Assembly (NCBI RefSeq): GCF_003991155.1
Contig: NZ_CP031293.1
Source: Escherichia coli
GTDB taxonomy: Bacteria; Pseudomonadota; Gammaproteobacteria; Enterobacterales; Enterobacteriaceae
Direction: 5' to 3' (one strand)
DNA: 64,000 bases
Numbering within the stretch: the first letter of the stretch is position 1; every line of letters starts with the position of its first letter. Below, one piece after another: positions 15,522 to 50,722 of the stretch. The notes beneath the pieces are model-generated. The model saw only the letters and a program-made list of their open reading frames with translations, made no database searches and was not told the origin of the DNA. Made by a program: the position numbers and the translations under genes.

Positions 15522-15579
15522 TTATAATATGTATCAGGGAAGGCTGTCCGGTATTTTATGACGCCTCTTTTAGAGTATA

Positions 15580-15654
15580 TTAATTGGTATTTCCGTGAAA
15601 ATATCGCTTATTGATAGTTTTTCATCTTCCGTGATTAACGCGTTAATCACGGAA
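15580..15654. promoter_or_regulatory. two adjacent palindromes (candidate operator or hairpin sites)
   Basis: Perfect 30-bp palindrome CTTCCGTGATTAACG/CGTTAATCACGGAAG, then an inverted repeat TACCTATCAA(N11)TTGATAGGTA. Confidence 0.4.
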
Positions 15655-15776
15655 GACTGTTACCTATCAAAAAAAGATATATTGATAGGTAACGGTCAAA
15701 TTTTATTTGGGGCCAAATAATTGTAGATACTTTCCGATTGGTAATAAAAAAGAACAACGGCAATACCTCTCAATAC

Positions 15777-15814
15777 AAAAAAGCAGATCCCGGCCAATCA
15801 GGATCTGCTTTTCC
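15777..15814 (-). terminator. intrinsic terminator downstream of the P4-type integrase reading frame
   Basis: Inverted repeat AAAAGCAGATCC...GGATCTGCTTTT followed on the minus strand by a T-run. Confidence 0.55.
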
Positions 15815-15841
15815 ATTTTAATGATTTCAGCTATTTATGAC

Positions 15842-17104: not shown

Positions 17105-17265
17105 TTGGGGGTCACTCCAGAATCGAACCAAACTGACCCCAGATCTGACCACCAAATTATCCCGATGCGGAGAGAAAATTAGATACGCACCGGGAAGGAT
17201 TTTCACGCTAACTTACTGAATCGTAAACAAATAGAGACGCATAGATAAGCATGAAAACTTGAATT

Positions 17266-17341
17266 TGGCTCCTCTGACTGGACTCGAACCAGTGACATAC
17301 GGATTAACAGTCCGCCGTTCTACCGACTGAACTACAGAGGA
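17266..17341 (-). tRNA. tRNA-Asn (GUU)
   Basis: 76-nt reverse complement of TCCTCTGTAGTTCAGTCGGTAGAACGGCGGACTGTTAATCCG...GGAGCCA; anticodon loop CUGUUAA. Confidence 0.95.
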
Positions 17342-17441
17342 ATCGTGAGAACGAGGCGAATATTAGCGACGCTCATCCACAATGTCAAAGCCTGTTTTTT
17401 AAATTTGAAATCGTTTGCTGAAATAATCTGCACTTTGTCGT

Positions 17442-19088
17442 TTATTCCGACACAACTGGCTTTTTTTCACACTTTTGCGGCTCAGGTCGAGGATATTTCC
17501 ACAGCCAACGTCCAGTAACCATTCGCCAGTAAAACAGCACGGCCCGCACAGCCCAGTCGGCAAACATTCCCATCCAGACACCAACTACACCCCAGCCAAG
17601 CATGATTCCCAGCACATAACCGACTACAACCCGGCAACCCCACATGCTCAACATAGAAACCCACATGGCGTAACGTGCATCGCGAGCACCCTTAAATCCA
17701 GCGGGTAGCACCCATGAGGCAGACCAAATAGGCATAAATAAAGCATTTAGCCAAATCAGAATCACAACGACATGTTTAACCTGTGGATCCTGGGTGTAAA
17801 ACGATGCCATAACCCCGGCAAAGGGAGCCGTTAGCCAGGCGATGGCCGTTAATCCAAGAGTGGACAGCCAGAACACATGCCGCAACTGAATCTCTGCTTG
17901 CGCTATCTGCCCTACCCCCAACCTTCGGCCTGTAATGATCGTAGAAGCAGAGCCGAGCGCACTTCCGGGTAAGTTGATAAGAGCCGCAATTGAAAACGCG
18001 ATAAAATTTCCGGCAATAACACTGGTCCCCATCCCGGCAACGAACATTTGGGTTAATAACCGACCACTGGTAAATAACACTGATTCGACACTCGCTGGAA
18101 TACCAATCCCCATGACTTCCCAGATAATGCTAAAATTCAGCGGGTTAAAATAGCTCTTTAACGAAATTCTTAGCGCAGGATTAAAACCAATCGCCAGCAC
18201 CCACAAAATTGCAACTGCGCCAATATAACGAGAAATGGTTAAACCCAACCCAGCCCCGACAAATCCCAGTCCCGGCCAGGAGAAAAGGCCGTAAATCAAT
18301 ATGCCGCTAATAATAATATTAAGAATATTCAGGCTACCGTTAATCAGTAGCGGTATTTTCGTATTCCCTGCACCACGAAGTGCCCCGCTACCAATCAAAG
18401 TGATGGCAGCTGCTGGATAACTGAGTACCGTCAGCTCCAGATAAGTCAACGCCAGTGCTTTAACTTCTGTCGTGGCATCACCCGCGACGAAATCAATAAT
18501 TTGTTCGCCAAAATGATGAATAAGCGTTGCCAACAGTACGGCAAACAACGTCATGATCACCAATGACTGCCGCGTCGCCACCCTCGCTCGTCGTCGATCC
18601 CGCTTACCGAGACAAAATGCCACAACGACAGTAGTACCAAGATCGATAGCAGCAAAAAAAGCCATAATGACCATATTGAAGCTGTCCGCCAATCCCACGC
18701 CGGCCATCGCATCTTTTCCCAGCCAGCTGACCAGAAAAGTGCTCAGGACCCCCATCAACAGGACACAGGCATTCTCCATGAAGATAGGAACAGCAAGCGG
18801 GGTTATCTCGCGCCAGAACAACACTTTGTAGCTCTTGCGTTTAGCGTGCCAGCGAGTGCCGTGAACAACCTGGCGTAAAGCAGAGGAGATATTCAAAGCC
18901 GACCTTAATTGCAGAAAGTGAAACCACATTTCAAATAATGAGGGAGAATCAGCAAAGCTGCAAAGATTTTCGCCAACAAATTGTCTGCAAATGCAACAAA
19001 CTGTTGATAGAAACGGCAAACGGTTGGGAAATTTAAAAATCGGGTTTGACAAAAGATTTTTCGCCGTTAAGATGTGCCTCAACAGCAA
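17442..19088 (-). CDS. yeeO: MATE-family efflux transporter YeeO
   Basis: 548-aa polytopic membrane protein in the yeeO position between two tRNA-Asn genes; N-terminal ~60 codons are not membrane-like, so the true start may be internal. Confidence 0.75.
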   Translation of the reverse strand: MLLRHILTAKNLLSNPIFKFPNRLPFLSTVCCICRQFVGENLCSFADSPSLFEMWFHFLQLRSALNISSALRQVVHGTRWHAKRKSYKVLFWREITPLAVPIFMENACVLLMGVLSTFLVSWLGKDAMAGVGLADSFNMVIMAFFAAIDLGTTVVVAFCLGKRDRRRARVATRQSLVIMTLFAVLLATLIHHFGEQIIDFVAGDATTEVKALALTYLELTVLSYPAAAITLIGSGALRGAGNTKIPLLINGSLNILNIIISGILIYGLFSWPGLGFVGAGLGLTISRYIGAVAILWVLAIGFNPALRISLKSYFNPLNFSIIWEVMGIGIPASVESVLFTSGRLLTQMFVAGMGTSVIAGNFIAFSIAALINLPGSALGSASTIITGRRLGVGQIAQAEIQLRHVFWLSTLGLTAIAWLTAPFAGVMASFYTQDPQVKHVVVILIWLNALFMPIWSASWVLPAGFKGARDARYAMWVSMLSMWGCRVVVGYVLGIMLGWGVVGVWMGMFADWAVRAVLFYWRMVTGRWLWKYPRPEPQKCEKKPVVSE

Positions 19089-19089
19089 T

Positions 19090-19165
19090 TCCTCTGTAGT
19101 TCAGTCGGTAGAACGGCGGACTGTTAATCCGTATGTCACTGGTTCGAGTCCAGTCAGAGGAGCCA
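19090..19165 (+). tRNA. tRNA-Asn (GUU)
   Basis: Sequence identical to the minus-strand copy at 17266-17341, ends in CCA. Confidence 0.95.
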
Positions 19166-19169
19166 AATT

Positions 19170-19203
19170 CAAAAAAGCCTGCTTTCAAGCAGGCTTTTTG
19201 CTT
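19170..19203 (+). terminator. intrinsic terminator after tRNA-Asn
   Basis: AAAAGCCTGCTTTCAAGCAGGCTTTTTGCTTTC stem-loop plus T-run. Confidence 0.6.
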
Positions 19204-20217: not shown

Positions 20218-21297
20218 TTAACTGTTCAAATCAGAAGTCGTATTCCCCGGTAGAACAATATTACTGGCAGCAAGTTCGCCCATGTTGTTGTATATCGCAC
20301 AAGCAGCTTCGATGATGGGCATCGCCAGAGCTGCGCCACTCCCCTCACCTAAACGCATCTCCATATTGAGATAAGGCTCCAGCCCCAAATGCGACAGCGC
20401 TATACGCGCCCCTTTTTCTGCCGACAGGTGAGAAGGAATGAGATACGGTTTGATTGCAGGAGACATCTGGCAGGCTGCGAGCGCAGCAGCATAAGAAAGA
20501 AATCCATCCAGCAACACGGGTAAACCGCAGGAAGCAGCGCCTAACATCACGCCAGCCATTCCGACCAAATCAAATCCACCCACTTTTGCCAGAACATTAA
20601 CGCCATCCTGCGGATTTGGCTGATTCAACGTAATCGCCCGGCGCACAACATCAATTTTATTAGCCAGTTTATCTGTCGGCAGGTTTGCGCCAATCCCAAC
20701 CACTTCTTCAGGATCCCGGCCAGTGATTGTGCTGACTATTGCTGCTGCCGGTGTCGTGTTTGCCATCCCCAGTTCACCTACACCAAACAGCGTGACACCG
20801 TTTTTTGCCAGCTCCCGCGTATAACATATGACGTCCAAAAGCAACTTTTCAGCCTGACGGCGACTCATTGCCGGAGCTGAAGCAATATTGCCGCTACCTC
20901 GTGCGACACGCATGTTGATAAGCCCGGGGATAGGCTCAGCAGTATCAATACCAACATCAATTACGTGGACGTTAGCGCCCGCTTGTGCTGCCAGCACACA
21001 CACGCCGGTTGTTCCGCGGGTCATATTTTCAGCCTGAATGGCTGTGACTTCTTTTGGGGAAATAGCGACCCCTTCCTCCCAGACGCCGTGATCGGCACAC
21101 ATAACCAGTACCGCTTTTTTGCCCACATGCGGTATGCCATTCAACCCCGGCATTCCCGCCAGTTGTACGCCAAGCGCCTCCAGCCTTCCCAGGCTACCAA
21201 CAGGTTTGAGTAACCCGTCAATATGCCGTTGTGCACGCGACATAGCGGCAGGATCGATGGCAGGGATCGTATTCAGTAAATTGGCAAGTGTTTGCAT
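20218..21297 (-). CDS. cobT: nicotinate-nucleotide--dimethylbenzimidazole phosphoribosyltransferase CobT
   Basis: 359 aa; N-terminus [19 protein letters not shown]... and gene order cobU-cobS-cobT. Confidence 0.85.
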
Positions 21298-21308
21298 GTC
21301 ACGTCTCT

Positions 21309-22052
21309 TTATAGCAGTGCCAGCAGGAAGACCAGTTCACCAAGCTCTATGGCTGCTCCCAGCGTATCGCCGGTTTGCCCGCCCAGCGTACGTTTGAGAA
21401 GCTGACCGAGGATGAAAATCGCCACCATCGTCACCACCATAGCAGCCACACCATGCATACCCGGCAATAATACGGCAGCAAAAATAGCGGCTAAGCCGAG
21501 TGTGACGCAGGTTTGTCGCCCATCAATTTTGCCAATGAACACATTGCCAAGCCCTTCTTCCCGCGCATAACGATGACGATACATCAATAATGCGGCAGTC
21601 CCGCGGCTGACCGCACATGCTGCCGCCAGCGATGCAAGGATCGGTTCGCCACGCAGAGCCAACTCGCTTAACACCAGAATCTTTGCCAGTACCACAAAAA
21701 TCAATGCCAGACCGCCGTGGGTGCCTAAACGGCTATCACGCATGATTTCCAACATGCGATCGCGGCTACGTGCAGAAAATACGCCATCACAGGTATCAGC
21801 GAGGCCGTCCAGGTGGAATCCCCCGGTCATCAGCGCCAGCATAAGTACGCTAAACAGTGCCGCCAGTGGTACGTCACACCATGCCTGCAGCACCATGAAG
21901 ACCAGCCCGCTAATCGCGCCAAGCAATAATCCAATCAAAGGAAAAGTAATAATACCGCGAGAATAATGCTCGAAATCCAGTCCCTGGGACCAGCGACGCG
22001 GTACAGGCAGACGCGTAATAAATGAGAGCATCGCCCAAAATAATTTACTCAT
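21309..22052 (-). CDS. cobS: adenosylcobinamide-GDP ribazoletransferase (cobalamin synthase) CobS
   Basis: Polytopic membrane protein; likely start [18 protein letters not shown]; between cobU and cobT. Confidence 0.85.
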
Positions 22053-22594
22053 TTGATTTTTACTCCAATACACGAAACCACCAGCCATACTTCATTTGCC
22101 GCAGCGGCCAACTGCTGGTTTACCCGCCCGGCAATATCACGAAAATGTCGTGCCAGACGACTCTCCGGCACAATCCCCATTCCCACTTCGTTAGTCACTA
22201 ATACAACCTTTGCGGGGCAACGTTGGCAGGCAGCAATCAACGACTGAATCTCAGCATTAATCGCCTGTTCCATCGCCTGATAATCCCATTCATCAGGGTC
22301 TTTATCGCCGCCATAATCAAACAACAGATTAGTCACCATTGTGGTAACGCATTCCAGCAACACAGCCTCATTCGGGTTAATGTCTGCATGAATTAATTCA
22401 TCAAGATGTTGCCAGCGCTCCACTGTGCGCCAGTGCGCCGGGCGGCCTTTCCGATGATGTTCTATCCGTGCAGCCATCTCATCATCAAGGATTTGCGAGG
22501 TGGCGATATACAGAACCTGTGAAGAGTCCCCAATAAGCGCTTCTGCGTGGCGACTCTTCCCGCTCCGTGCTCCACCTGTCACCAAAATCATCAT
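22049..22594 (-). CDS. cobU: adenosylcobinamide kinase / adenosylcobinamide-phosphate guanylyltransferase CobU
   Basis: 181 aa; P-loop [18 protein letters not shown]. Confidence 0.85.
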
Positions 22595-22727
22595 ACCGAC
22601 TCCTGATTCAATTGTATGATGGTATTCATTGAACAGAACAATGGATCCCCCACCGTTGCTGACCGCAAAACATTTACGCGATTAATACTGCGCGTAATAT
22701 AATTAAAAATCCAGCATTCTCAATCCA

Positions 22728-23234
22728 TTACGAAAGAAGATGGCATTGCGGAATAGCCAGACTTCCTCGTGTTAACGTCCGACAAAATGCGTCATTGACA
22801 GCGGTTTCTCTGGCATGACAGATTTCATTCAGATAATGGATTAATGCTACAGCCCCACCAGCCGGACCAGTCAGCAAACGGGCATTGTGTTCTGTAATCA
22901 AAATTACCGTCGTTCCCTCAGAATGAGCGAGCCATTCTGGTACGGATATCTCGCTTTCAGCTGCTATCAATAGCAGCACTGAATAATCGCTATACGCATC
23001 TGATAACGATTGCACAGGCCCACCGTCAAAAGGCTGGAAATCTTGCTGCCAGTCCTCACCAACCAAACAGGTTATTGGCAATATTTCCGCCAGATGTTTC
23101 GCCAGATCCACATCTCCAGATAAGAGGCAAAAAAGAGCTATCGATTCGGGTTTTATCGTTTTCATGCCCCTCGCCCTCCACTTAATTTCCTGTAATGGCG
23201 GTCTGGTTGATAAGCCATGAAACAAGATTGCCAC
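22728..23234 (-). CDS. hypothetical protein upstream of cobU (possible cbi-region remnant)
   Basis: 168-aa ORF between pocR and cobU, where Salmonella carries the cbi operon; no motif recognised. Confidence 0.3.
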   Translation of the reverse strand: MAILFHGLSTRPPLQEIKWRARGMKTIKPESIALFCLLSGDVDLAKHLAEILPITCLVGEDWQQDFQPFDGGPVQSLSDAYSDYSVLLLIAAESEISVPEWLAHSEGTTVILITEHNARLLTGPAGGAVALIHYLNEICHARETAVNDAFCRTLTRGSLAIPQCHLLS

Positions 23235-23649
23235 ACCTTAAGTGCAGCCCTGGTGCCTGTCGGCACTGCGATGAAAGAACTAAATGATGCCGCCATACCC
23301 TGATCCTTTCAGGGTGGTAGGGGTATAAAGACGCGCCTGTACTCTACCGGACGCTTCCGGGCAACCCACTTCCCACCGAAGTTGTTGGTATTGACTGACT
23401 GGCTGGTCTTCTGGCTTAGCGTCATCCTCTCCCGACCTTCCCAATCTCGCGATCAGTGGCATTTTCGGGTTTGTCAGCATTACAGCAGCGGGGGCTGCGA
23501 GGGATTTTCACCCTCTTCCCAGGCACAAATGTGCCACACCTGTCAGCGTATGTTATGAGCTGATTTCACTTTTCCCATAACAGGGAAATAACGTTAATTA
23601 TTCATTCCAGAGTTTATTTAAACCGTCCTCTTTTTTTGGGGCATTTACT

Positions 23650-24564
23650 CTATACCGTTTCCATCGCCGCATTATCACTCACTTGCTGTCGATACACCTG
23701 CGGCGTAACCTGATAAGTCTGACGGAAAACTTTGCAAAAATAACTTGTTTGCGAAAAACCTAAATTACGCGCAATGCTGGCGATGCTCCAGTCACTATGG
23801 CACAGTAACTCACGAGCGCTGGCCATCCGTTGTTGGTTTACCCACGCATTAAACCCGATTCCATGGTATTTCTTAAATAACTTACTGAAATAATAAGGGC
23901 TTAGATAAACGTGCGAGGCGACATCTTCCAGACGCAAATCGTCTGATAAATGCGCATCAATATAACGTAAAGCTTTTTTCATTTTATTGTCGTGGGGACC
24001 AGGCGCACGAGTCTGGCGCAACGAATCTGACTGAGATTTGTTCTCTTTAATAACCACAAAATTGAGTTGTTTTTTTAGGCAATTTTCTACAATCAACTTC
24101 AACAAATCCGCAGAGGCCATAACTCTTGAGTAATCCATCTCAGGGACTTTGCGAAATTCATTAAGTAATTCGGGATCTGCCTGCCAGCAATCATCGACAT
24201 TCAGAATATCGACCAAATCGACATCATCATTACGCAGACGAACTTGCCCGCACAATACAAAACCAACTAAATGTCCGGCGATTACCAGTGGAATAGAGAA
24301 ATCGGTTAATCCGGCATGACAGCGATAAATACAAGGCTGATCGGATTTAGAGGCTTCCAGCCCCCCACAACGATCGCTCATGCGACATCGAGTGCTCATC
24401 TGAGGGTGTTGCCGCATCATCTGACAAAATGGAGTGAAGTTAAACAGCTCGGAAATTTCATCGCCGTGAATATTGACCACGACAACCGCAAGGCTGGTCG
24501 CCTGCGCAAAATCCTGCGCGATTTTATTAATGAGTTCTGAATTAAGTGTCGCCGCAGAAATCAT
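23650..24564 (-). CDS. pocR: AraC-family regulator PocR (propanediol / cobalamin regulon activator)
   Basis: N-terminal sensory region plus C-terminal AraC HTH (YFSKLFKK...SIASIARNLGFSQTSYFCKVFRQ); divergent from the pdu operon, adjacent to pduF. Confidence 0.85.
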   Translation of the reverse strand: MISAATLNSELINKIAQDFAQATSLAVVVVNIHGDEISELFNFTPFCQMMRQHPQMSTRCRMSDRCGGLEASKSDQPCIYRCHAGLTDFSIPLVIAGHLVGFVLCGQVRLRNDDVDLVDILNVDDCWQADPELLNEFRKVPEMDYSRVMASADLLKLIVENCLKKQLNFVVIKENKSQSDSLRQTRAPGPHDNKMKKALRYIDAHLSDDLRLEDVASHVYLSPYYFSKLFKKYHGIGFNAWVNQQRMASARELLCHSDWSIASIARNLGFSQTSYFCKVFRQTYQVTPQVYRQQVSDNAAMETV

Positions 24565-24766
24565 GATAAAACCTCCCAGTTAATTTATTGTTATAGCAAA
24601 ACAATTGTTTTACATTTAATCTTCACATCATCCTTGATGATTTACTGACGAGAAGCACAAAGGACAATAACAAAAGCCTCCGTGAAGCGGGAGACTTTTT
24701 AATAAGTTCGGAAAGCAGATCACAAACAGTAAAAAAATAAACGTTTATAACTGCCAGATTATTTCA

Positions 24767-25576
24767 TTATTCGCTGATTTCTTTAGGCGTTACACTATTG
24801 ACAGGTAAATTCTTTGCAATGAGATAGCGATAAATCGCCGCACCAACACATGCCCCAATGATCGGTGCAATAATGGGTACAATGAAATAAGGAATATTGC
24901 GTCCACCAGTCATCGCAATTTCCCCCCAACCCGCAAACCAGGTGAAAATTTTAGGTCCAAAATCACGCGCTGGATTCATGGCAAAACCGGTTAATGGTCC
25001 GGTAGAAGCACCAATAACAGCAACCAGAATACCAATAAGTAAAGGCGCAAGCGGTCCTTTGGGTACGCCATTACCGTCATCGGTCAACGCCATAATCAAC
25101 CCCATTAACATGGACGTTATGACCACTTCGACCAACGCAGCTTGCCATACATTAATCGCCGCTGCTGGATAAGTACTGAAGATACTGGCGAGTTGTAAAC
25201 TTTCTGCGCTACCACGCACTATATTGTGAGCAGATTCAAAATCGATAAACAAACTGCTGTAGAGAGAATATGCCAGAACCGCACCACCAAAGGCACCCGC
25301 TAATTGCGCCACACAAAATGGCAGCACTTTACGGGCTGGGAAAGAGGCAAACAGCCACAGAGCAATGGTAACTGCCGGGTTGAGATGAGCGCCGGAAATA
25401 CCTGCCGTAAGGTAAACAGCAAGCGAAATCCCTAACCCCCATATGATACAAATTTCCCACAGTCCCAGACTTGCCCCGGCAACTTTCAGGGCGCACAAAC
25501 AACCAATGCCAAAAAAGAGGAACAGTCCGGTGCCCAAAAACTCGGCAACGCATTGCGCCTTGAGTGAATCATTCAT
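24767..25576 (-). CDS. pduF: propanediol diffusion facilitator PduF (MIP/aquaporin family)
   Basis: NPA motif (HLNPAVT), multi-pass membrane; likely start MNDSLKAQC... at 25576. Confidence 0.85.
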   Translation of the reverse strand: MNDSLKAQCVAEFLGTGLFLFFGIGCLCALKVAGASLGLWEICIIWGLGISLAVYLTAGISGAHLNPAVTIALWLFASFPARKVLPFCVAQLAGAFGGAVLAYSLYSSLFIDFESAHNIVRGSAESLQLASIFSTYPAAAINVWQAALVEVVITSMLMGLIMALTDDGNGVPKGPLAPLLIGILVAVIGASTGPLTGFAMNPARDFGPKIFTWFAGWGEIAMTGGRNIPYFIVPIIAPIIGACVGAAIYRYLIAKNLPVNSVTPKEISE

Positions 25577-26009
25577 AGTGACACCTTCTTTACGGAGTTT
25601 TTCTTTATCAGCCAACTATGCGCTGATTGTTGTGTATACCGAGCGCAACTATAAAAAATTGCTCTGCAGAAAATATTGCCAACATGCATGACAGACTCGT
25701 GTAAAAATCGTGCTAACATAACAAATTATTGTCATTGCCGAATCATGCAACACAGCTTTAATCAGTGTTGAAGTAATAATTTCCACCAAACTTTTACAAT
25801 AAAAAATTGCCATCATGACATAATAAAATTGAAACAAATATCACAGTTCCTTCCTCGAACCAAACTCAACGAAATATTATTCGCGATTAAACTCACTAGC
25901 CAACGCAATTAATTCACATTGAAACATCCACAAAACAACCAATAAATTAACAACATATAGTTCATAAAAGCAATTTTATTATATTTGTTCTCTAGGTAAT
26001 GACTCCAAC

Positions 26010-26513
26010 TTATTGATAGTGTTTTATGTTCAGATAATGCCCGATGACTTTGTCATGCAGCTCCACCGATTTTGAAAACGACAGCGACTTCCGTCCCAGC
26101 CGTGCCAGGTGCTGCCTCAGATTCAGGTTATGCCGCTCAATTCGCTGCGTATATCGCTTGCTGATTACGTGCAGCTTTCCCTTCAGGCGGGATTCATACA
26201 GCGGCCAGCCATCCGTCATCCATATCACCACGTCAAAGGGTGACAGCAGGCTCATAAGACGCCCCAGCGTCGCCATAGTGCGTTCACCGAATACGTGCGC
26301 AACAACCGTCTTCCGGAGCCTGTCATACGCGTAAAACAGCCAGCGCTGGCGCGATTTAGCCCCGACGTATCCCCACTGTTCGTCCATTTCCGCGCAGACG
26401 ATGACGTCACTGCCCGGCTGTATGCGCGAGGTTACCGACTGCGGCCTGAGTTTTTTAAATGGCGGAAAATCGTGTTGAGGCCAACGCCCATAATGCGGGC
26501 GGTTGCCCGGCAT
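26010..26513 (-). CDS. insB: IS1 InsB (transposase catalytic part; InsAB' by -1 frameshift at the A6C motif)
   Basis: 167 aa InsB sequence; TTTAAAAAAC motif present on the coding strand. Confidence 0.9.
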
Positions 26514-26707
26514 CCAACGCCATTCATGGCCATATCAATGATTTTCTGGTGCGTACCGGGTTGAGAAGCGGTGTAAGTGAACTGCAGTTGCCATGTTTTA
26601 CGGCAATGAGAGCAGAGATAGCGCTGATGTCCGGCGGTGCTTTTGCCGTTACGCACCACTCCGTCAGTAGCTGAACAGGAGGGACAGCTGATAGAAACAG
26701 AAGCCAC
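26432..26707 (-). CDS. insA: IS1 InsA
   Basis: [43 protein letters not shown]...; 91 aa. Confidence 0.9.
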
Positions 26708-26863
26708 TGGAGCACCTCAAAAACACCATCATACACTAAATCAGTAAGTTGGCAGCATCACCTGTTCTCTATTAATTTTTCTCATTAGCCGAGTAAGTCA
26801 GCCATTCTTTTTCCTCGCTTTTTTTTATAGTCATATCGTCAAAAAAATCCAGGCGAGGTCTTT

Positions 26864-27148
26864 ATGCAACAAGAAGCGTTAGGAATGGTAGAAACCAAAG
26901 GCTTAACTGCCGCCATAGAGGCCGCAGATGCCATGGTGAAGTCGGCAAATGTTTTGCTGGTCGGCTACGAAAAAATAGGTTCCGGGCTGGTGACCGTCAT
27001 CGTTCGTGGTGATGTCGGGGCGGTAAAAGCGGCAACAGACGCGGGTGCCGCAGCTGCGCGTAACGTCGGCGAAGTAAAAGCCGTACACGTTATTCCCCGC
27101 CCACATACCGATGTCGAAAAAATCTTACCAAAGGGAATTAACCCATGA
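26864..27148 (+). CDS. pduA: BMC shell protein PduA
   Basis: 94-aa BMC-domain protein ([24 protein letters not shown]), first gene of the operon. Confidence 0.9.
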
Positions 27149-27957
27149 GCAGCAATGAACTGGTCGAACAGATCATGGCGCAGGTCATCGCTCGCGTAGC
27201 GACGCCAGAGCATGAGGTTCTCCCGAAAACCACTCATCAAATACGAGAGACGGCTATGGCAGAAAAAAGCTGCACGTTAACAGAATTTGTTGGCACCGCT
27301 ATTGGCGACACTGTAGGTCTGGTCATTGCGAACGTTGATAGCGCCCTGTTGGACGCGATGAAACTTGAAAAACGCTATCGTTCCATTGGCATTCTGGGGG
27401 CGCGTATTGGCGCAGGGCCACACATTATGGCCGCTGATGAAGCGGTAAAAGCCACCAACACTGAAGTTATTAGCATTGAACTTCCTCGCGATACTAAAGG
27501 CGGTGCCGGACACGGCTCATTGATCCTCTTAGGTGGCAACGATGTTTCCGACGTGAAACGCGGTATTGAAGTTGCCCTGAAAGAACTCGATCGGACCTTT
27601 GGTGATGTCTATGCCAACGAAGCCGGGCATCTTGAACTGCAATACACCGCCCGCGCCAGCTATGCACTGGAAAAAGCGTTTGGCGCTCCACTGGGACGGG
27701 CTTGCGGCGTTATTGTCGGCGCTCCGGCTGCGGTGGGTGTTCTGATGGCCGACACCGCGCTGAAGTCCGCCAATGTGGATGTCGTGGCATACAGCTCCCC
27801 CGCTCAAGGCACCAGCTACAGCAACGAAGTCATTCTGATTATCTCGGGTGACTCCGGCGCAGTCCGCCAGGCGGTCATCTCCGCACGCGCAATCGGTAAA
27901 ACCGTGCTTTCGACTCTCGGCGATACACCGAAAAACGATCGCCCTTCCTACATCTGA
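27145..27957 (+). CDS. pduB: BMC shell protein PduB (tandem BMC domain)
   Basis: 270 aa, position and length as PduB. Confidence 0.85.
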
Positions 27958-27975
27958 ATTCTCTGAGGCAGATTT

Positions 27976-29640
27976 ATGAGATCGAAAAGATTTGAAGCAC
28001 TGGCAAAACGCCCGGTCAACCAGGACGGTTTCGTTAAAGAGTGGATTGAAGAAGGCTTCATTGCGATGGAAAGCCCGAACGATCCTAAACCGTCAATCAA
28101 AATTGTTAACGGCGTCGTTACCGAACTGGATGGAAAACCCGCCAGTCAGTTTGACCTGATCGACCACTTTATCGCCCGCTACGGCATCAATCTCGCGCGC
28201 GCAGAAGAAGTCATCGCGATGGATTCGGTAAAACTTGCCAATATGTTGTGCGATCCAAATGTCAAACGTAGCGATATCGTTCCCCTTACCACAGCAATGA
28301 CGCCTGCAAAAATCGTCGAAGTGGTTTCGCAGATGAACGTGGTAGAGATGATGATGGCGATGCAGAAAATGCGCGCCCGTCGAACACCATCACAACAGGC
28401 TCACGTCACCAACATCAAAGATAACCCGGTACAAATTGCCGCCGACGCAGCTGAAGGCGCATGGCGCGGGTTTGATGAACAGGAAACCACTGTTGCCGTT
28501 GCTCGCTATGCACCGTTCAACGCCATCGCCCTGCTGGTCGGCTCACAGGTGGGACGTCCGGGCGTCTTGACCCAGTGTTCACTGGAAGAAGCCACCGAAC
28601 TGAAACTCGGTATGTTAGGCCACACCTGTTACGCCGAAACAATTTCTGTCTATGGTACAGAACCTGTTTTCACCGATGGCGATGATACCCCGTGGTCAAA
28701 AGGATTTCTCGCGTCATCCTATGCTTCTCGCGGCTTAAAAATGCGCTTTACTTCCGGCTCCGGCTCTGAAGTACAGATGGGTTACGCGGAAGGCAAATCA
28801 ATGCTTTATCTCGAGGCTCGATGCATTTACATCACCAAAGCCGCAGGCGTTCAGGGTCTGCAGAATGGTTCGGTAAGCTGCATCGGTGTTCCATCAGCTG
28901 TGCCATCAGGCATCCGCGCAGTATTAGCGGAAAACTTAATTTGCTCATCGCTGGATCTGGAATGCGCCTCCAGTAATGACCAGACCTTTACCCACTCGGA
29001 TATGCGCCGTACCGCACGTTTCCTGATGCAATTTCTGCCGGGTACCGACTTTATCTCGTCCGGTTTTTCCGCTGTGCCGAACTACGACAACATGTTTGCT
29101 GGTTCAAACGAAGATGCTGAAGACTTCGATGATTACAACGTCATTCAGCGTGACCTGAAGGTTGATGGCGGGCTGCGACCAGTACGCGAAGAAGATGTTA
29201 TCGCAATCCGCAATAAAGCCGCTCGCGCTTTACAGGCTGTCTTTGCCGGTATGGGACTACCGCCAATTACCGATGAAGAAGTCGAAGCGGCAACCTATGC
29301 CCACGGTTCGAAAGATATGCCTGAGCGCAATATTGTGGAAGACATCAAGTTCGCCCAGGAGATTATCAATAAAAACCGTAACAGCCTGGAAGTGGTGAAA
29401 GCCCTGGCGCAAGGCGGTTTTACCGATGTCGCCCAGGACATGCTCAACATGCAAAAAGCAAAACTGACCGGCGATTATCTCCATACCTCAGCCATCATCG
29501 TCGATGACGGACAAGTGCTCTCAGCGGTCAATGACATCAATGATTACGCCGGACCAGCTACAGGTTACCGCCTGCAAGGGGAACGCTGGGAAGAGATCAA
29601 AAATATTCCCGGTGCACTTGATCCCAACGAAATTGACTAA
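27976..29640 (+). CDS. pduC: B12-dependent diol dehydratase large subunit PduC
   Basis: 554 aa; start MRSKRFEALAKRPVNQDGFVKEWIEEG. Confidence 0.9.
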   Translation: MRSKRFEALAKRPVNQDGFVKEWIEEGFIAMESPNDPKPSIKIVNGVVTELDGKPASQFDLIDHFIARYGINLARAEEVIAMDSVKLANMLCDPNVKRSDIVPLTTAMTPAKIVEVVSQMNVVEMMMAMQKMRARRTPSQQAHVTNIKDNPVQIAADAAEGAWRGFDEQETTVAVARYAPFNAIALLVGSQVGRPGVLTQCSLEEATELKLGMLGHTCYAETISVYGTEPVFTDGDDTPWSKGFLASSYASRGLKMRFTSGSGSEVQMGYAEGKSMLYLEARCIYITKAAGVQGLQNGSVSCIGVPSAVPSGIRAVLAENLICSSLDLECASSNDQTFTHSDMRRTARFLMQFLPGTDFISSGFSAVPNYDNMFAGSNEDAEDFDDYNVIQRDLKVDGGLRPVREEDVIAIRNKAARALQAVFAGMGLPPITDEEVEAATYAHGSKDMPERNIVEDIKFAQEIINKNRNSLEVVKALAQGGFTDVAQDMLNMQKAKLTGDYLHTSAIIVDDGQVLSAVNDINDYAGPATGYRLQGERWEEIKNIPGALDPNEID

Positions 29641-29649
29641 GGGTGAGAA

Positions 29650-30318
29650 ATGGAAATTAACGAAAAATTACTGCGTCAGATTATCGAAGGCGTGCTGGCA
29701 GAAATGCAAACCAGCGACAAGTCCGTTTCATTTCGTGCACCTGTCTCTGCAACTGTCTCTTCAGTGCCAGATACCGGAAATTTTCTGACCGAAATTGGCG
29801 AAGCCCAACAAGGCACTCAGCAAGATGAAGTCATTATTGCTGTAGGCCCGGCGTTCGGCCTGGCGCAAACCGTCAATATCATCGGTATTCCGCATAAAAA
29901 CATTTTGCGCGAAGTGATTGCCGGTATCGAAGAAGAAGGCATTAAAGCCCGTGTGATTCGCTGCTTTAAATCGTCCGATGTCGCATTCGTAGCAGTCGAA
30001 GGCGATCGTCTTAGTGGTTCAGGTATTGCTATCGGTATTCAGTCGAAAGGCACAACGGTTATCCACCAGCAGGGACTTCCCCCCTTGTCTAACCTGGAAC
30101 TTTTCCCACAAGCGCCTTTGTTGACGCTGGATACTTATCGTCAGATTGGCAAAAACGCCGCGCGTTATGCGAAGCGCGAGTCTCCACAACCGGTGCCGAC
30201 CCTCAACGATCAAATGGCGCGACCGAAATACCAGGCCAAATCTGCCATTTTGCATATTAAAGAGACGAAGTACGTGGTCACTGGCAAAAAACCGCAAGAA
30301 CTGCGCGTGACGTTTTAA
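29650..30318 (+). CDS. pduD: diol dehydratase medium subunit PduD
   Basis: 222 aa following pduC. Confidence 0.85.
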
Positions 30319-30332
30319 CAAAGGAAACCTTC

Positions 30333-30851
30333 ATGAATACCGATGCAATTGAGTCGATGGTCAGGGACGTGTTGAACCGCATGAACAGTTTACAGGGTGC
30401 AGCTCCTGTTTCTGCGGTCCCCAGCGCGTCAATACAGAGCGCCAAAGTGACGGATTACCCGCTGGCAAATAAACATCCGGAATGGGTTAAAACAGCAACC
30501 AATAAAACGCTCGACGATTTCACTCTGGAAAATGTGCTCAGCGATAACGTCACCGCCCAGGATATGCGCATTACCCCTGAAACATTGCGTATTCAGGCCG
30601 CGATTGCCAGAGATGCTGGTCGCGATCGCCTGGCGATGAATTTCGAACGCGCCGCTGAGCTTACCTCAGTACCGGATGATCGCATCCTCGAAATCTACAA
30701 TGCGTTACGCCCTTATCGTTCGACTAAGCAAGAACTTATTGCCATTGCTGACGATCTTGAACGGCGTTATCAGGCCAAAATTTGTGCTGCATTTGTCCGT
30801 GAAGCTGCGGAACTTTATGTCGAGCGCAAAAAACTGAAAGGCGACGATTAA
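30333..30851 (+). CDS. pduE: diol dehydratase small subunit PduE
   Basis: 172 aa following pduD. Confidence 0.85.
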   Translation: MNTDAIESMVRDVLNRMNSLQGAAPVSAVPSASIQSAKVTDYPLANKHPEWVKTATNKTLDDFTLENVLSDNVTAQDMRITPETLRIQAAIARDAGRDRLAMNFERAAELTSVPDDRILEIYNALRPYRSTKQELIAIADDLERRYQAKICAAFVREAAELYVERKKLKGDD

Positions 30852-30887
30852 GGACGAACTATGCGATATGACGATTAAGGACGAACT

Positions 30888-32720
30888 ATGCGATATATAG
30901 CAGGCATTGATATCGGCAACTCATCAACAGAGGTTGCGCTGGCAACGCTCAGTGCAACTGGAGAGTTGTCGTTCGTGAGTAGCGCCCTGGCGGAAACCAC
31001 CGGAATTAAAGGTACGTTGCGTAACGTCCATGGTATTCAGGAGGCGCTCGCACAGGCAACGAAAAAAGTCGGCATCAATGTTAGCGATATTTCGCTTATT
31101 CGTATCAACGAAGCAACTCCGGTCATTGGTGATGTGGCGATGGAAACCATCACTGAAACTATCATCACCGAATCAACCATGATCGGTCACAACCCGAAAA
31201 CGCCGGGCGGAGTGGGGCTGGGCGTAGGGCTCACCATCACTCCGCAAGAGTTATTAACATGCCCGGCGGACACACCCTACATTCTGGTGGTGTCATCGGC
31301 ATTTGATTTTGCCGATATCGCAACAATGATAAACGCCTCCGTACGCGCCGGATATCAGCTGACTGGCGTTATTCTGCAACGCGACGATGGCGTACTGGTC
31401 AATAACCGCCTGGAAATTCCTCTCCCTATTGTTGATGAAGTCCTCTACATCGATCGTATTCCGCTCGGCATGCTGGCTGCGATTGAAGTTGCCGTTCCCG
31501 GGAAAGTTATCGAAACCCTGTCTAACCCGTATGGGATTGCCACCGTTTTCGCCCTCAATGCTGAAGAGACTAAAAATATTGTTCCTGTCGCGCGGGCGCT
31601 AATCGGCAACCGTTCAGCAGTGGTAGTGAAAACGCCTTCTGGCGACGTTAAAGCCCGTTCGATACCCGCCGGAAATATCGAACTGCTTTCTGCCGGGCGC
31701 ACAACGCGGGTTGATGTAGCTGCTGGTGCCGATGCCATTATGAAAGCGGTCGGTGAGTGCCCAAAACTGGAAAACGTGACGGGAGAACCTGGCTCCAACA
31801 TCGGCGGAATGCTGGAACATGTTCGCCAGACCATGGCTGAACTGACCAACAAACCCAGCCACGAAATTTTTATTCAGGATTTGCTGGCGATAGATACCTC
31901 TGTCCCCGTCAACGTAACCGGTGGTCTGGCAGGTGAATTTTCACTGGAACAGGCTGTGGGTATTGCCTCTATGGTGAAATCCGACCGTCTGCAAATGGCG
32001 ATGATCGCCAGTGAAATTAAGCAAAAACTGCATGTTGATGTTCAGGTCGGAGGCGCAGAAGCAGAAGCCGCCATTCAAGGGGCCTTGACTACCCCTGGAA
32101 CCACACGTCCACTGGCAATTCTGGACTTAGGTGCAGGCTCTACCGATGCCTCCATCATCAATCAGAAAGGGGAAATTGTTGCCACTCACCTTGCGGGTGC
32201 GGGCGACATGGTAACGATGATTATCGTTCGTGAGCTGGGCTTAAATGATCGTTATCTGGCAGAAGAAATCAAAAAGTACCCGTTGGCAAAAGTAGAAAGC
32301 CTGTTCCACTTACGCCATGAAGATGGCAGCGTTCAGTTCTTCCCTACTCCCCTATCCCCCTATGTATTTGCCCGCGTCTGTGTAGTGAAACCCGACGAAC
32401 TGGTGCCTATTCCCGGTGATTTGACGCTGGAAAAAGTACGCGCTGTTCGTCGCAGTGCGAAAGAGCGTGTCTTCGTAACCAATGCCCTGCGCGCGCTACG
32501 TCAGGTAAGCCCTGCCGGAAATATTCGCGACATTCCGTTCGTCGTTCTGGTGGGCGGTTCTTCGCTGGATTTCGAAGTACCACAGTTAGTCACCGATGCA
32601 TTGGCGCATTATCGACTGGTCGCCGGACGGGGGAATATCCGTGGTAGCGAAGGTCCGCGCAACGCGGTAGCTACTGGGCTACTCATCGCCTGGCACAAGG
32701 AGTCGATTCATGGAAAGTAA
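30888..32720 (+). CDS. pduG: diol dehydratase reactivase large subunit PduG
   Basis: 610 aa, MRYIAGIDIGNSSTEVALA (ASKHA-like N-terminus); preceded by a 27-bp tandem duplication of its ribosome-binding site and start. Confidence 0.85.
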   Translation: MRYIAGIDIGNSSTEVALATLSATGELSFVSSALAETTGIKGTLRNVHGIQEALAQATKKVGINVSDISLIRINEATPVIGDVAMETITETIITESTMIGHNPKTPGGVGLGVGLTITPQELLTCPADTPYILVVSSAFDFADIATMINASVRAGYQLTGVILQRDDGVLVNNRLEIPLPIVDEVLYIDRIPLGMLAAIEVAVPGKVIETLSNPYGIATVFALNAEETKNIVPVARALIGNRSAVVVKTPSGDVKARSIPAGNIELLSAGRTTRVDVAAGADAIMKAVGECPKLENVTGEPGSNIGGMLEHVRQTMAELTNKPSHEIFIQDLLAIDTSVPVNVTGGLAGEFSLEQAVGIASMVKSDRLQMAMIASEIKQKLHVDVQVGGAEAEAAIQGALTTPGTTRPLAILDLGAGSTDASIINQKGEIVATHLAGAGDMVTMIIVRELGLNDRYLAEEIKKYPLAKVESLFHLRHEDGSVQFFPTPLSPYVFARVCVVKPDELVPIPGDLTLEKVRAVRRSAKERVFVTNALRALRQVSPAGNIRDIPFVVLVGGSSLDFEVPQLVTDALAHYRLVAGRGNIRGSEGPRNAVATGLLIAWHKESIHGK

Positions 32721-33060
32721 AGAGCGTGCACCAGCCATCGTCGTCATGGAGATCGGTAACTGCATCACTATATGGGATGAGGTGCTTCTTGGCATTGAAG
32801 AGGAAGGTATTCCCTTTCGCATTCAACACATTCCGTCAGGTGAAGTTATCGATAGCGCCTGGCTGGCTGCTCGTCAATCTCCCCTGTTGGTTGGCATTGC
32901 CTGCGATCAGGAAAAACTGATTGTGCATTACAAAAACTTACCACCATCAGCGCCACTGTTTACGCTGATGTATCAACAAGATAACCATGCCCGGCGCAGC
33001 ATCGGCACTAACGCTGCCCGCCTGGTAAAAGGAATTCCCTTCCGGGAATTCCACTCATAA
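32710..33060 (+). CDS. pduH: diol dehydratase reactivase small subunit PduH
   Basis: 116 aa, overlaps pduG end. Confidence 0.8.
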
Positions 33061-40978: not shown

Positions 40979-41422
40979 ATGCAACGTATGATGCTTATCG
41001 GCCCCAGCCAGTGCGGAAAAACGTCACTCACGCAATGTCTGCGTGGCGAAAATATCCATTATCAGAAAACGCAGGCAATCGTCTGGTCCCCGACCACCAT
41101 TGATACACCAGGCGAATACCTCGAAAACCGCAGCCTCTACAGTGCATTGTTGGTCAGTGCCTGCGAAGCAGACATTATCGCGCTGGTACTTAATGCGGAC
41201 GCACCGTGGTCACCTTTTTCGCCAGGCTTTACCTCGTCAATGAATCGCCCGGTCATTGGAGTAGTAACCAAAGCAGATTTAGCCAGTATGGAACAAATAT
41301 CTTTGGTGAAATGTTGGTTACGGGAAGCTGGAGCGCACAACGTGTTAGTAACCAGTGCGGTTAATAACAATGGAGTTACAGAAGTTTTTGCCTTGCTGCA
41401 TACAGAAGAAGGCTGTCGCTAA
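40979..41422 (+). CDS. pduV: GTPase PduV (EutP/PduV family)
   Basis: P-loop [13 protein letters not shown]; last gene of the operon here. Confidence 0.85.
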
Positions 41423-41480
41423 TTTCGATAGGTTCTCAGATGAGAATGATGACGGTGATACACAGATAAGAATCAATGAG

Positions 41481-41509
41481 CAATGAGGGTTGCCGGGCAA
41501 CCCTCATTG
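41481..41509. terminator. bidirectional intrinsic terminator between convergent pduV and yeeX
   Basis: Perfect palindrome AATGAGGGTTGCC/GGGCAACCCTCATT flanked by A/T runs. Confidence 0.6.
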
Positions 41510-41522
41510 AATAAAACAGGAA

Positions 41523-41852
41523 TTACTTCGCTTCGCCGTTTTTCATTTCGCCCATAGCTTTCAGCTTTTTGGAGATATCGCGGCGTTCTTTGGAGAGCTC
41601 GGCATTTTTGATGATGTAATCGTCAACGCGATCTTCATAGTCACCTTTCATGCTGGCGATGATGCCCTGGATTGCTTCAACGCTCATCCCTGGCTTGATG
41701 TAATCGCTCAGGTTGTCCAGCAACAGGACGCGCTTCTGGTTGTCACGGATCTTTTTCTCAACGTCCTGAATTTCACGTTGCAGTTTGTTCTTACGACGGA
41801 ACAGACGAACAAATTCCAGTACGTCCTGGAATGAAGGCTTGGTAGTTTCCAT
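41523..41852 (-). CDS. yeeX: DUF496 protein YeeX
   Basis: [30 protein letters not shown]... matches YeeX from memory; start at internal Met of the longer ORF. Confidence 0.8.
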
Positions 41853-42023
41853 TTTTATACCCCTGATAATGTGAGAGTCGGATTCGTTTAAGCAACCGCT
41901 ATTCGTTAGGGCCAACATTACTCATAGCTGCCGCAGATGACAATGCTTTTATCCCTTTTCACTATCATACCCTTTATCCTTGCTGAATCGAAGCAGCAGC
42001 AAGATGATTCTGAAGTTCAGGAA

Positions 42024-45246: not shown

Positions 45247-45300
45247 ATGATGAATGACGGTAAGCAACAATCTACCTTTTTGTTTCACGATTACGCGCAA
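45247..45300 (+). pseudogene. sbcB: 5' remnant of sbcB (exonuclease I) at the prophage junction
   Basis: ATGATGAATGACGGTAAGCAACAATCTACCTTTTTGTTTCACGATTAC encodes MMNDGKQQSTFLFHDY, matching the SbcB N-terminus from memory, then diverges into ...AQHP-stop. Confidence 0.55.
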
Positions 45301-45775
45301 CACCCCTGAGAACCGCCATAAACAAGGGTTTCATGATTTGTGATTTTAGTTTGGTACGCAATTTGGTACACAACACAATTTTCACTTCAGCGGGTAGTCA
45401 TCAAACTCACCATAACGCACTTCGTTGATGATGTACGTGATCACCAAAAATATCGCATCCGGACTAGTTCCATCTTCATGCGCAGGCATATGTTCATGCC
45501 TACCTGTCTGCAAACCAGTAATAAGCCATTACAGGGTGATAGTGATGCATCAACTACGTTAAGCGCAGAGAAATGATGCAGTGGTGGGCGGATTGGCTTG
45601 ATGAAAAGGTGGAGTGATCCACCTTAACCACTATCGAAGAGCACAAAGCCTTGCAATCCAGTGCAAAGCTTTGTGTGTCTCAGTTTTGTTTCATAGGTAA
45701 TCATGCGTTCACTACGATGCAAGAATCCATACCAAATTTTATTTAAAACTCACAAATACACTAGATAAAAACAAT

Positions 45776-45794
45776 CCCGCAGTTTTCATGCGGG
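45776..45794 (-). terminator. intrinsic terminator downstream of the tailspike gene
   Basis: CCCGC-N9-GCGGG hairpin followed on the minus strand by a T-rich run. Confidence 0.5.
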
Positions 45795-45814
45795 ATATAC
45801 TGCATTTATTGCAA

Positions 45815-48292
45815 CTACATTGCCATTAATATAAACATAGCCAATTCGTCATAACGAATTCCGTAGCGTCCACCTGCTTTTTTTACAAGAATCATATTTC
45901 CTGTTTTATATTGAGAATAAATTTTCTCACCTGTATCAGGATCTGTGCTCTCTTCAGTTATCACCTCTTCATCCCATACGTCTGGCCATTCATCGTAACA
46001 CCAAAAAGCATATTGCTCAGGATTTAAACCATGCTTTCTAAGAATATCTCCTACGGTTTGAGCGCCAACTCCAAAATGATACCTTGATAACTCCAATCCT
46101 TTAAAATTAATCGACTCATTAAACCTGAACTTGCATATAATTCCCTTTATTTCCAGCGCAGCATCACGCTCTGCCTGAGTAATGTCATATATTGTTTTAA
46201 GTGTTTCATCTGATGTGCTTATAGTCCCGGATGCAGAATAAATCTGAGCCCATCTAAATGATGGTGCACCAAGAGATTTGCTGTTATCAATAATTGGTGA
46301 AAAATTACCTTTAATGGCAATATTTCCAGAGTCGCCGAATATATTAATAACTGTAGAGTCATCACCATGGTTTTTTACGCTTAAGTTTCTTGATAAAATA
46401 TTTATATCTTTGTTATACCCACTAACATTAATCCATCTTTTACCATCAATGTGATACCCGTAAATATTTCCGTTTGATTGTTCGTCAGGTGACTCTCTAA
46501 GAACAATAGCATCTACTCCAGACGACCATTGTATTTTTGTATCTGTAGGCCTCCAGTTCTTTATAATGAACGAACCATCAGTAAACTCCGTTTTTATTTG
46601 TCTATTGTCTACAAATGCGTCTCTTGGTTTAAACTCACTTGTGTTAACGCTGCTCTGAAGATCAGAAGCAAAAAATCTAAGATTTCCTGTATAACCCTGA
46701 GTCTCGGTCAGGTTATACGCAATCATAATTCCATTTTCAAACTCAGATGATGTTATTTTAACATCACGGCAATCACCAAAAATGCAATTTCCTTTATCAA
46801 ATGTTGTTTGAGCTTTGAATTTATCAAACCTTAAATTACGAACAGGGAAACCATCAACCTCTAATGCAAAGGATGCATGAAGGCCAAAGTATTCTGATGG
46901 CTTACCTGATGTATGATCAAGAGTAGTGGCTACTGTATTCTCAAAAACAGTCCCGCTAAAATTATTACCAATTGACGGAAACCTGATTACACTTATTGTA
47001 CCTTGTATTTCAGGAGAAATACCAGATAGTGTGATGTTAGTTCCATCAAATGATGCATCTGAATACGTATATACTGATTCACTGCCAGCAATTTTAAACT
47101 GTTTAACTGAAGTTATTCTCATCGACTTTTTATGTTTAAATGTCACTGAGCTTTCAGTATTACTTACAAGATCAATCTGAGGGCTATTCCTTATCGCGAT
47201 TCCTGACTGGACATAAACGTTATTAAAGTGCGTTTTTTCAGGATTTCCCTTCATTGAAAGGCTCCCGTCATTTTCTGTCAGTAGTAGTCCTTTTACCCTC
47301 CAATAGCCGACAATCTGTACGTTATCAATAACTGAATCACAGCTATCGTATACATGCAACCCTATATCCCAGTTATCACCCAATGAATAAGAATCAGGGT
47401 TATTGTATCCTTCAATACCATTTTTACTTACCATTATTCTCAGATTGCGTAACTGTGATGCCCTGTTGATACTAACAGCTACGCTCATGGCTTTTGGTGT
47501 AGCAGGAGTAACACCTACAGAATCTTCATTCGTAAACTCAGTGAACTTACAAGATATCCCTTCAACAATTTTAACCGGTCTTTCATTAGAGATGTTAAAA
47601 AAATATTTGTTTTTTTCTCCATCACCAGTAAATACAAGATGGGTTCCTTTACTCCAACTTTTTAATAATCTTTCAGGCGCTGGTCTATATGTATCCCAAT
47701 AATCAATGCCAGATCCAACCAGTGAACACCCCTCAGGAATGTTAATATTCTTCTTGATGATGCATATTCCTTCCGGAATTGTTATAACCGACCTTCCAGA
47801 GTTTAAAGCTTTAATAAAAGCATCTGAATCATCTGTTTCCCCATCTATTTTTGCTCCCCACCCTCTAACATCTCCACAATCTCTCCATCGTGCCATCTGC
47901 AACTCAGGATATTTTTTAGCGCCATCTGGATCTTCTAATTGCTGCCGTAGCTGATCGGGGTCATACTTCAGCACATTAGGAAAATAGAACTGCTGCGCAC
48001 CATATGCATCATAAACAGCCATAGAATGGCCTTGCACAGTTACAAACTTGGCTATTTGCCCGTTATATACCGGGTAACCAGCAGCGTTAATGATGATTGG
48101 TTGCGAAACAGGAACGTGAGAGCCATCTTCGTTCTCCACATAAACCTGAATCTGGTTTTCAGGATTTACAGGGTCAGTGTCAATTTTACCGATATAAATT
48201 TTGCCATTGGCAACCGCTTTAAAAGAACGTGCCATAGTGAAGAGTTGAGAAGGCATACTCACTACAACATTGGCATTTATCGAATCTGTCAT
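45815..48292 (-). CDS. tailspike protein (P22 gp9-like head-binding N-terminus, divergent receptor-binding body, C-terminal chaperone-like domain)
   Basis: First ~115 aa resemble the P22 tailspike head-binding domain ([37 protein letters not shown]...[13 protein letters not shown]...VLKYDPDQ); remainder unrelated. Confidence 0.8.
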
Positions 48293-48391
48293 TTAATTTG
48301 CTCCAGATACAAGGAATCGCCGCAGCATGGCTACGGTGAATTTTGGGCATAAAAAACCCAGCCGAAGCTGGGTCGTTGCGTTGGTTATCTG

Positions 48392-49321: not shown

Positions 49322-49387
49322 GTCAGTTTTTCCTCAAAATTTACTGGCGATTTAAGCCCGAGCTACTCGCAATAGCTTGGGCTTTAC

Positions 49388-49534: not shown

Positions 49535-49646
49535 TTTTGCTCCTTTGCTCCTTTGTATGTGGTACGCATACATAGTATTTAGGTACGCATTGATAGTCAA
49601 TAGATACCTACATATCCTGTGGTAAATAATTATTCAGGATGCGCCG

Positions 49647-50209: not shown

Positions 50210-50234
50210 TAGAAAGGATTTTATAAATAACTTT

Positions 50235-50720: not shown

Positions 50721-50722
50721 AG

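Follow-up and report, generated by a model that had tools for sequence, protein, structure and literature searches.

The junction between pduE and pduG in the Escherichia coli sequence analysed here contains a 27-bp unit repeated in tandem, which raises the questions of whether the repeat is real, where it came from, and whether it alters the translation of pduG. The window, i.e., the whole stretch of DNA that was analysed, is 64,000 nucleotides long. In the E. coli chromosome, the pdu operon runs from pduA to pduV (19 genes), with cobUST, pocR, and pduF on one side and tmaR, yeeA, and sbmC on the other. Farther out, a tRNA-Asn island with Rhs genes occupies positions 1–17600 of the window, and a P22-like prophage starts just past 45295, next to dacD and, by comparison with strain 2016C-3878, within the 5′ end of sbcB.

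The repeat unit, GACGATTAAGGACGAACTATGCGATAT, was read twice head to tail at 30843–30896 with 0 mismatches, and Tandem Repeats Finder reported the same interval with a period of 27, 2.0 copies, 100% matches, 0 indels, and a score of 108. This was the top-ranking tandem repeat of the window, the others scoring 61 or less. Even with three mismatches tolerated, the unit occurred at just these two sites in the 64 kb (0 expected, 100 shuffles). On either side the repeat breaks off at once, with C at 30842 vs. T at 30869 and A at 30897 vs. G at 30870, and the tract is exactly 2 × 27 bp; since the flanking bases do not continue the repeat, the duplication junction has a microhomology of 0 nt.

Copy 1 (30843–30869, plus strand) and copy 2 (30870–30896, plus strand) were each delimited by sequence reading, Tandem Repeats Finder, and the mismatch search. 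The tract reads ...AAA GGC GAC GAT TAA GGACGAACT ATG CGA TAT to the end of copy 1, and GAC GAT TAA GGACGAACT ATG CGA TAT ATA GCA GGC... from copy 2 onward. Copy 1 contains the last two codons of pduE (which ends GGC GAC GAT TAA), its stop TAA at 30849–30851, the Shine-Dalgarno (SD) sequence TAAGGA at 30849–30854, a 6-nt spacer, an ATG at 30861–30863, and CGATAT. Copy 2 begins with GAC GAT TAA, in which the TAA at 30876–30878 closes a mini-ORF, and continues with TAAGGA at 30876–30881, the true pduG ATG at 30888–30890, and again CGATAT. The mini-ORF (30861–30878, plus strand; identified by sequence reading) is ATG CGA TAT GAC GAT TAA, encoding MRYDD; its start context is that of the ancestral pduG start and its stop context that of the pduE stop. 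The original prediction had described an exact 27-bp tandem duplication at these positions, spanning the pduE stop, the SD sequence, and the pduG start, and creating a five-codon MRYDD ORF with a ribosome-binding site identical to that of pduG. All of this was borne out by reading the sequence, and the extent of the repeat also by Tandem Repeats Finder; the two gene assignments likewise proved correct against the ORF list and the PGAP annotation.

Both flanking proteins were left unaltered by the duplication. The gene pduE (30333–30851, plus strand), encoding the small subunit of propanediol dehydratase, was recognised from the ORF list and from NZ_CP029747.1, in which PGAP had annotated an identical sequence. 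The gene pduG (30888–32720, plus strand; ORF list, PGAP, and alignment to 2D0O_A) encodes the alpha subunit of the diol dehydratase reactivase and begins MRYIAGIDIGN, a start that was kept in 35 other genomes. PduG residues 1–608 aligned to residues 1–608 of 2D0O_A (E = 0), the solved structure of the large subunit of the diol dehydratase-reactivating factor, and in the carrier genomes PGAP placed the start at the same position. Because the alignment from residue 1 and the PGAP annotation agree, 30888 can be taken as the true start of pduG. The following gene, pduH (32710–33060, plus strand; ORF list and PGAP), encodes the reactivase beta subunit and overlaps the end of pduG by 11 nt. Every pdu gene was annotated as intact in the carrier genomes. 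What did change was the spacing between the two genes: the pduG start follows the pduE stop after 9 nt in the single-copy allele and after 36 nt in the duplicated one; according to the PGAP coordinates, the latter is the longest among the 18 junctions of the operon, the remainder spanning −11 to +23 nt.

A 1001-bp query across the junction was compared with a collection of 5426 complete E. coli genomes, to which the window's own genome is external, and found matches in 640. Two copies were present in 29 of these, all 100% identical over the entire 1001 bp, and the non-carriers aligned over 974 bp of their record, equivalent to one copy. With a synthetic three-copy query added, the count among the 640 pdu-bearing genomes was 611 single, 29 double, and 0 triple. 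The carriers belong to unrelated projects: their sources were humans, cattle, chickens, pigs, sheep, dogs, cats, mink, wastewater, and surface water, and the places represented were the USA, Korea, Japan, Hong Kong, Thailand, and China. The four carriers with a published type were all ST457, with differing serotypes, countries, and sequencing projects: AR13438 (O25:H25; PMC10100771), CREC-544 (PMC5884925), and MRY15-117 (O11:H25) and MRY15-131 (O1:H25; PMC5430464). ST457 belongs to phylogroup F (PMC11948896). The assemblies of MRY15-117 and MRY15-131 are based on PacBio sequencing at 135–165x coverage, and Illumina data were also obtained in that study (PMC5430464).

The duplication is genuine. 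The original prediction had considered that it might be an assembly artefact, the real genome being single-copy, and an assembly or sequencing error is an explanation for which prior suspicion alone speaks. It was refuted by the identical 54-bp tract, shared by 29 complete assemblies that are independent of one another and span many laboratories, hosts, and countries, at least two of them PacBio assemblies at the coverage given above; moreover, any read far exceeds a 27-bp repeat, so that the repeat creates no ambiguity in assembly. We therefore attach practically no probability to this explanation.

The original prediction had also proposed a comparison with other pdu operons, which gave one copy in the 611 E. 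coli genomes and at all loci from other genomes. For the latter, genome contigs were scanned with a degenerate pduG-start pattern, which returned 35 loci; because only sequences encoding MRYIAGIDIGN can match the pattern, more divergent reactivases lie outside this sample. All 35 loci were single-copy, with neither the same nor an analogous duplication. Other Escherichia (E. albertii, E. whittamii, and others) had one copy and a 9-nt spacer, and Citrobacter, Klebsiella, Phytobacter, and relatives had spacers of 13–18 nt and no duplication, from which we infer that one copy is the ancestral state.

The carriers pointed to a common descent of the duplicated allele. In a comparison of 25 kb around the junction, 27 carriers showed 100.0% identity to the window over about 24 kb, with bit scores corresponding to a few differences at most per 24 kb. 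The carriers 980-2 and UID2309220003 showed 99.2% identity over the same region, with equal bit scores; 980-2 was compared base by base, and UID2309220003 was assessed by identity and bit score. In 980-2, an 8.5-kb block around the duplication (23612 to 32101) contained 0 SNPs, and SNPs were dense beyond it (162 downstream and 24 upstream). Strain 980-2 is accordingly a recombination mosaic that retained the duplication-bearing haplotype, rather than a case of independent duplication. Because 27 carriers are near-identical over about 24 kb and 980-2 shares their haplotype around the duplication, we conclude that the allele had a single origin and now marks one E. coli lineage.

One genome departed from this pattern. 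UID2309220009 carries a single copy, yet it showed 0 SNPs relative to the window over 23.4 kb and has identical pdu protein accessions; it is either ancestral, having branched off before the duplication, or a revertant that lost one copy. Tandem direct repeats of such length can be lost through slippage or recombination, and the single copy of UID2309220009 on the same haplotype would be compatible with an unstable repeat whose copy number alternates between one and two, as a reversible expansion and contraction switch. We regard such a switch as improbable. Of the 30 genomes sharing the haplotype, 29 have kept two copies, and UID2309220009 may simply be basal. Among the 640 genomes only copy numbers of one and two occurred, which does not resemble a contingency repeat, and the repeat lacks the protein-coding or promoter consequence typical of contingency loci.

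Products of replication slippage usually carry a few nucleotides of microhomology, and the zero microhomology found here appears untypical of simple slippage. Slippage between microhomologies was rejected as the origin, as the junction has none and the sequence GCGA, which occurs twice, does so 22 nt apart and does not fit a 27-nt unit. Full-text literature searches for an earlier account of the duplication returned nothing relevant. In other respects the repeat resembled clonal short tandem-duplication (indel) markers, having two exact head-to-tail copies, one origin, clonal inheritance, and single-copy relatives; it differed from them in its lack of microhomology and in that the duplicated unit is a full stop/SD/start module yielding a translatable mini-ORF. 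The duplication is an ordinary clonal tandem-duplication polymorphism.

The two alleles were also compared with regard to initiation at pduG. Counting from the pduG ATG, they do not differ in the initiation region from position −18 onward. Opening energies were calculated with a constrained partition function for four context sizes: opening −20 to +15 around the pduG ATG required 6.9–8.5 kcal/mol in the reconstructed single-copy allele and 5.9–7.8 kcal/mol in the duplicated allele, and the mini-ORF start was similar (6.1–7.7 kcal/mol). The accessibility of the pduG start is therefore predicted to be about equal in both alleles. The duplex between UAAGGA and the anti-SD comprised 6 bp with −5.8 kcal/mol at both sites, each followed by a 6-nt spacer. 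In the minimum-free-energy fold of the duplicated allele, the codons of the mini-ORF formed a weak hairpin with the region of the pduG ATG, which was no better than in shuffled sequence (z = 0.5; fold energies z +0.5 to +1.3). A new RNA structure sequestering the pduG start was rejected on the basis of this z of about 0.5 together with the equal opening energies.

The original prediction further held that translational coupling of the reactivase may be altered, with the mini-ORF acting as a decoy. Adjacent operon genes coupled by termination-reinitiation and ribosome-assisted unfolding (PMC10666635, PMC4538824, PMC6728339) offer one comparison: the ancestral pduE stop overlaps the pduG SD sequence at a 9-nt spacer, which corresponds to the "+10 nt" class noted for E. 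coli, and the mini-ORF, ending 9 nt before pduG, repeats the same geometry. The arrangement departs from such pairs in that 36 nt now separate pduE from pduG, and at this spacing direct reinitiation is largely lost in tested pairs: termination-reinitiation is strongly distance-dependent, and in E. coli reporter pairs it was down 80–100% at a 38-nt spacing (PMC10666635). Any coupling here would need a five-codon intermediate. In a quantitative operon model, reinitiation was a small term and flat across spacers of 0–25 nt, and de novo initiation and ribosome-assisted unfolding dominated (PMC4538824). Salmonella microcompartments contain 376 copies of PduE vs. 76 of PduG (PMC7181861); with this difference of about 5-fold, the junction is a step-down point at which 1:1 coupling is not expected. 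Altered coupling is possible but not favoured, because the geometry has been rebuilt, the sequence from −18 onward is unchanged, and the opening energy is about equal. For the mini-ORF, "relay" would be no less apt a term than "decoy".

These considerations bear on a further explanation, according to which the duplication measurably retunes PduG, and PduH via its overlapping start, relative to PduCDE and was selected in ST457. The retuning might lower PduG, because of decoy initiation or occlusion and because pduE is now farther away, or raise or stabilise it, with the mini-cistron keeping the pduG start unfolded in the manner of an engineered two-cistron coupler. Consistent with retuning are the exceptional 36-nt spacing and its expected effect on reinitiation, the weak new hairpin, the retention of the allele throughout a globally spread lineage, and the 27 nt between the two starts, which is less than one ribosome footprint, so that initiation at the mini-ORF can, by this geometry, transiently block the pduG site. 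PduG would drop if pduG needed reinitiation coupled to pduE and the mini-ORF were a poor relay. Against this stand the unchanged SD strength and predicted accessibility of the pduG site and a hairpin no better than chance, and neither the other species nor the E. coli lineages sampled had converged on such an arrangement. Retention does not imply selection either: carriers almost identical over 24 kb indicate a young lineage, so that little can be learned about the fitness cost of the allele from its persistence, and UID2309220009 has the same haplotype without the duplication. Taken together, retuning seems unlikely, albeit worth keeping in view.

We consider it probable, instead, that the duplication is a single-origin lineage marker that leaves the proteins unchanged and is near-neutral, with the mini-ORF relaying whatever coupling existed. 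The duplicated module is complete, comprising the pduE end, the stop, the SD sequence, and the pduG start. The 36-nt gap is occupied by a five-codon mini-cistron bearing the ancestral ribosome-binding site of pduG and stopping as pduE once did, at a TAA that overlaps TAAGGA and precedes the pduG ATG by 9 nt. Translation of pduG would proceed chiefly from its own ribosome-binding site, which is unaltered. Ribosomes would initiate independently at either of the identical sites, and those finishing the mini-cistron would hand on to pduG the termination-dependent help (reinitiation or unfolding) that pduE ribosomes formerly gave. The new cost would be limited to transient mutual exclusion between start sites 27 nt apart. 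PduG output would change little under this scheme, and the near-neutral allele would have spread through clonal descent.

The arrangement recalls the engineered two-cistron or bicistronic-design expression cassettes reportedly described by Schoner et al. in 1986 and Mutalik et al. in 2013. As in such leaders, a short cistron with its own SD sequence (30849–30854) and ATG (30861) precedes the main gene, whose SD sequence (30876–30881) overlaps the leader stop (30876–30878), so that translation of the leader terminates in the start region of the main gene. Unlike in those designs, the mini-ORF stop lies 9 nt upstream of the pduG ATG (30888) without overlapping it, and the mini-ORF has only five codons and arose by chance duplication, any benefit being hypothetical. 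An adaptive natural "relay cistron", in which a translated spacer of five codons with the native stop/SD/start arrangement at its end uncouples the synthesis of PduG and PduH from PduE translation or stabilises it and so aids the success of the emerging ST457 lineage, is in our judgement highly improbable. If it were true, the reactivase-to-dehydratase ratio would be changed, with a benefit in hosts and diets rich in 1,2-propanediol or glycerol.

Two other classes of small ORF were compared. The lambda bar minigenes are very short ORFs prone to peptidyl-tRNA drop-off, and their toxicity is seen with limiting Pth and high expression. The mini-ORF resembles them in having five sense codons and a good SD sequence, but nothing indicates that such conditions apply to a mini-ORF inside an induced catabolic operon. 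Leader peptides such as hisL, tnaC, and ermCL share with it the position of a small ORF directly upstream of a regulated gene. In contrast to these, the MRYDD ORF is not conserved, being absent from the 611 single-copy E. coli genomes (of 640 loci) and from 35/35 other genome loci examined, and it has no alternative RNA structures, terminator, or regulatory codon pattern. A regulatory leader peptide or attenuator was rejected on account of this non-conservation, of folds not exceeding those of shuffled sequences, and of the equal opening energies.

An insertion sequence was observed upstream of pduA. The element, a 768-bp IS1 on the minus strand (25995–26762), has InsA and InsB recognisable in its translations, and its insertion duplicated a 9-bp target, TGTTCTCTA, which flanks it on both sides. 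It lies between pduF and pduA; 101 bp separate its right end from the downstream pduA ATG (26864), with 92 bp between the adjacent target-site copy and that ATG. A promoter-like site at 25919–25948 is located on the far side of IS1 from pduA. No IS1 was found at that site in the 5426 complete E. coli genomes (0/5426), the 29 other carriers included. From its position, IS1 may cut off pduA and the genes after it from their PocR-dependent control region, and for pdu expression in the window's strain this private insertion probably matters more than the duplication.

The biological importance of the duplication is modest. The carrying lineage, which was ST457 in all documented cases, can be recognised simply from the 27-bp insertion, by PCR product size or by k-mers, and the same marker also tags recombinant segments carrying the pdu haplotype of that lineage. 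For annotation it serves as a warning, since pduG does not start at the first ATG past pduE that has a good ribosome-binding site. The single- and double-copy alleles form a clean natural pair, the duplication being the sole difference in more than 23 kb, and this pair would be suited to measuring whether a translated mini-cistron at a +9 junction relays or blocks coupling.

The 27-bp tandem duplication between pduE and pduG also occurred in strain 980-2 (NZ_CP127324.1), where it was surrounded by a SNP-free block of approximately 8.5 kb (window equivalents 23612–32101). The flanks of this block were divergent from the window, with 24 SNPs upstream and 162 downstream, and were similar to the AR_0077-type haplotype. 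The mosaic pdu region of 980-2 is evidence that homologous recombination has taken place inside the pdu operon. Strain UID2309220003 gave the same identity (99.2%) and bit score over 24 kb as 980-2 in an alignment-level comparison; of these two strains, the SNP-level comparison covered 980-2. In strain UID2309220009 (NZ_CM142667.1), the pduE/pduG junction (12452–12462 in that genome's locus) contained a single copy and lay on a haplotype that showed 0 SNPs relative to the window across 23.4 kb; this genome either retains the state immediately ancestral to the duplication or is a revertant. In UID2309220009, the adjoining tRNA-Asn bears a different island, encoding a type I restriction-modification system.

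The window itself carries a genomic island at tRNA-Asn genes (1–17600), with inverted tRNA-Asn copies at about 17259–17343 and 19088–19172. Its cargo included toxin genes with Rhs repeats, as well as remnants of integrases and toxin-antitoxin pairs. Only 23 genomes contained the left 10 kb at a coverage of at least 80%, and the eight listed among them were all duplication carriers. A P22-like prophage (~45296–64000) adjoins dacD and encodes a tailspike, DNA-transfer proteins, gp10, gp4, capsid, portal, and terminase. The window was collinear with ST457 strain 2016C-3878 until 49 bp into sbcB, and strain LR-60 contained a comparable prophage at the identical site.

At the borders of the pdu operon (~21000–25600 and 41200–42000), cbi cobalamin-synthesis genes were absent from this E. 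coli locus. The locus had only a 145-aa remnant ORF, preceded by a cobalamin riboswitch, and then cobUST. The last operon gene was pduV, and neither pduW nor pduX was present between pduV and tmaR in the window.

Between pduF and pduA, a 768-bp IS1 copy was detected (25995–26762; InsA/InsB on the minus strand), bordered by a 9-bp target-site duplication, TGTTCTCTA (25986–25994 and 26763–26771). A search of 5426 complete E. coli genomes, the 29 duplication carriers among them, found no IS1 at this site. The pduA ATG (26864) lies 101 bp downstream of the right end of IS1, and a promoter-like site (25919–25948) is located beyond the element, on the side away from pduA. The insertion may have severed the PocR-controlled promoter region from the pdu operon.
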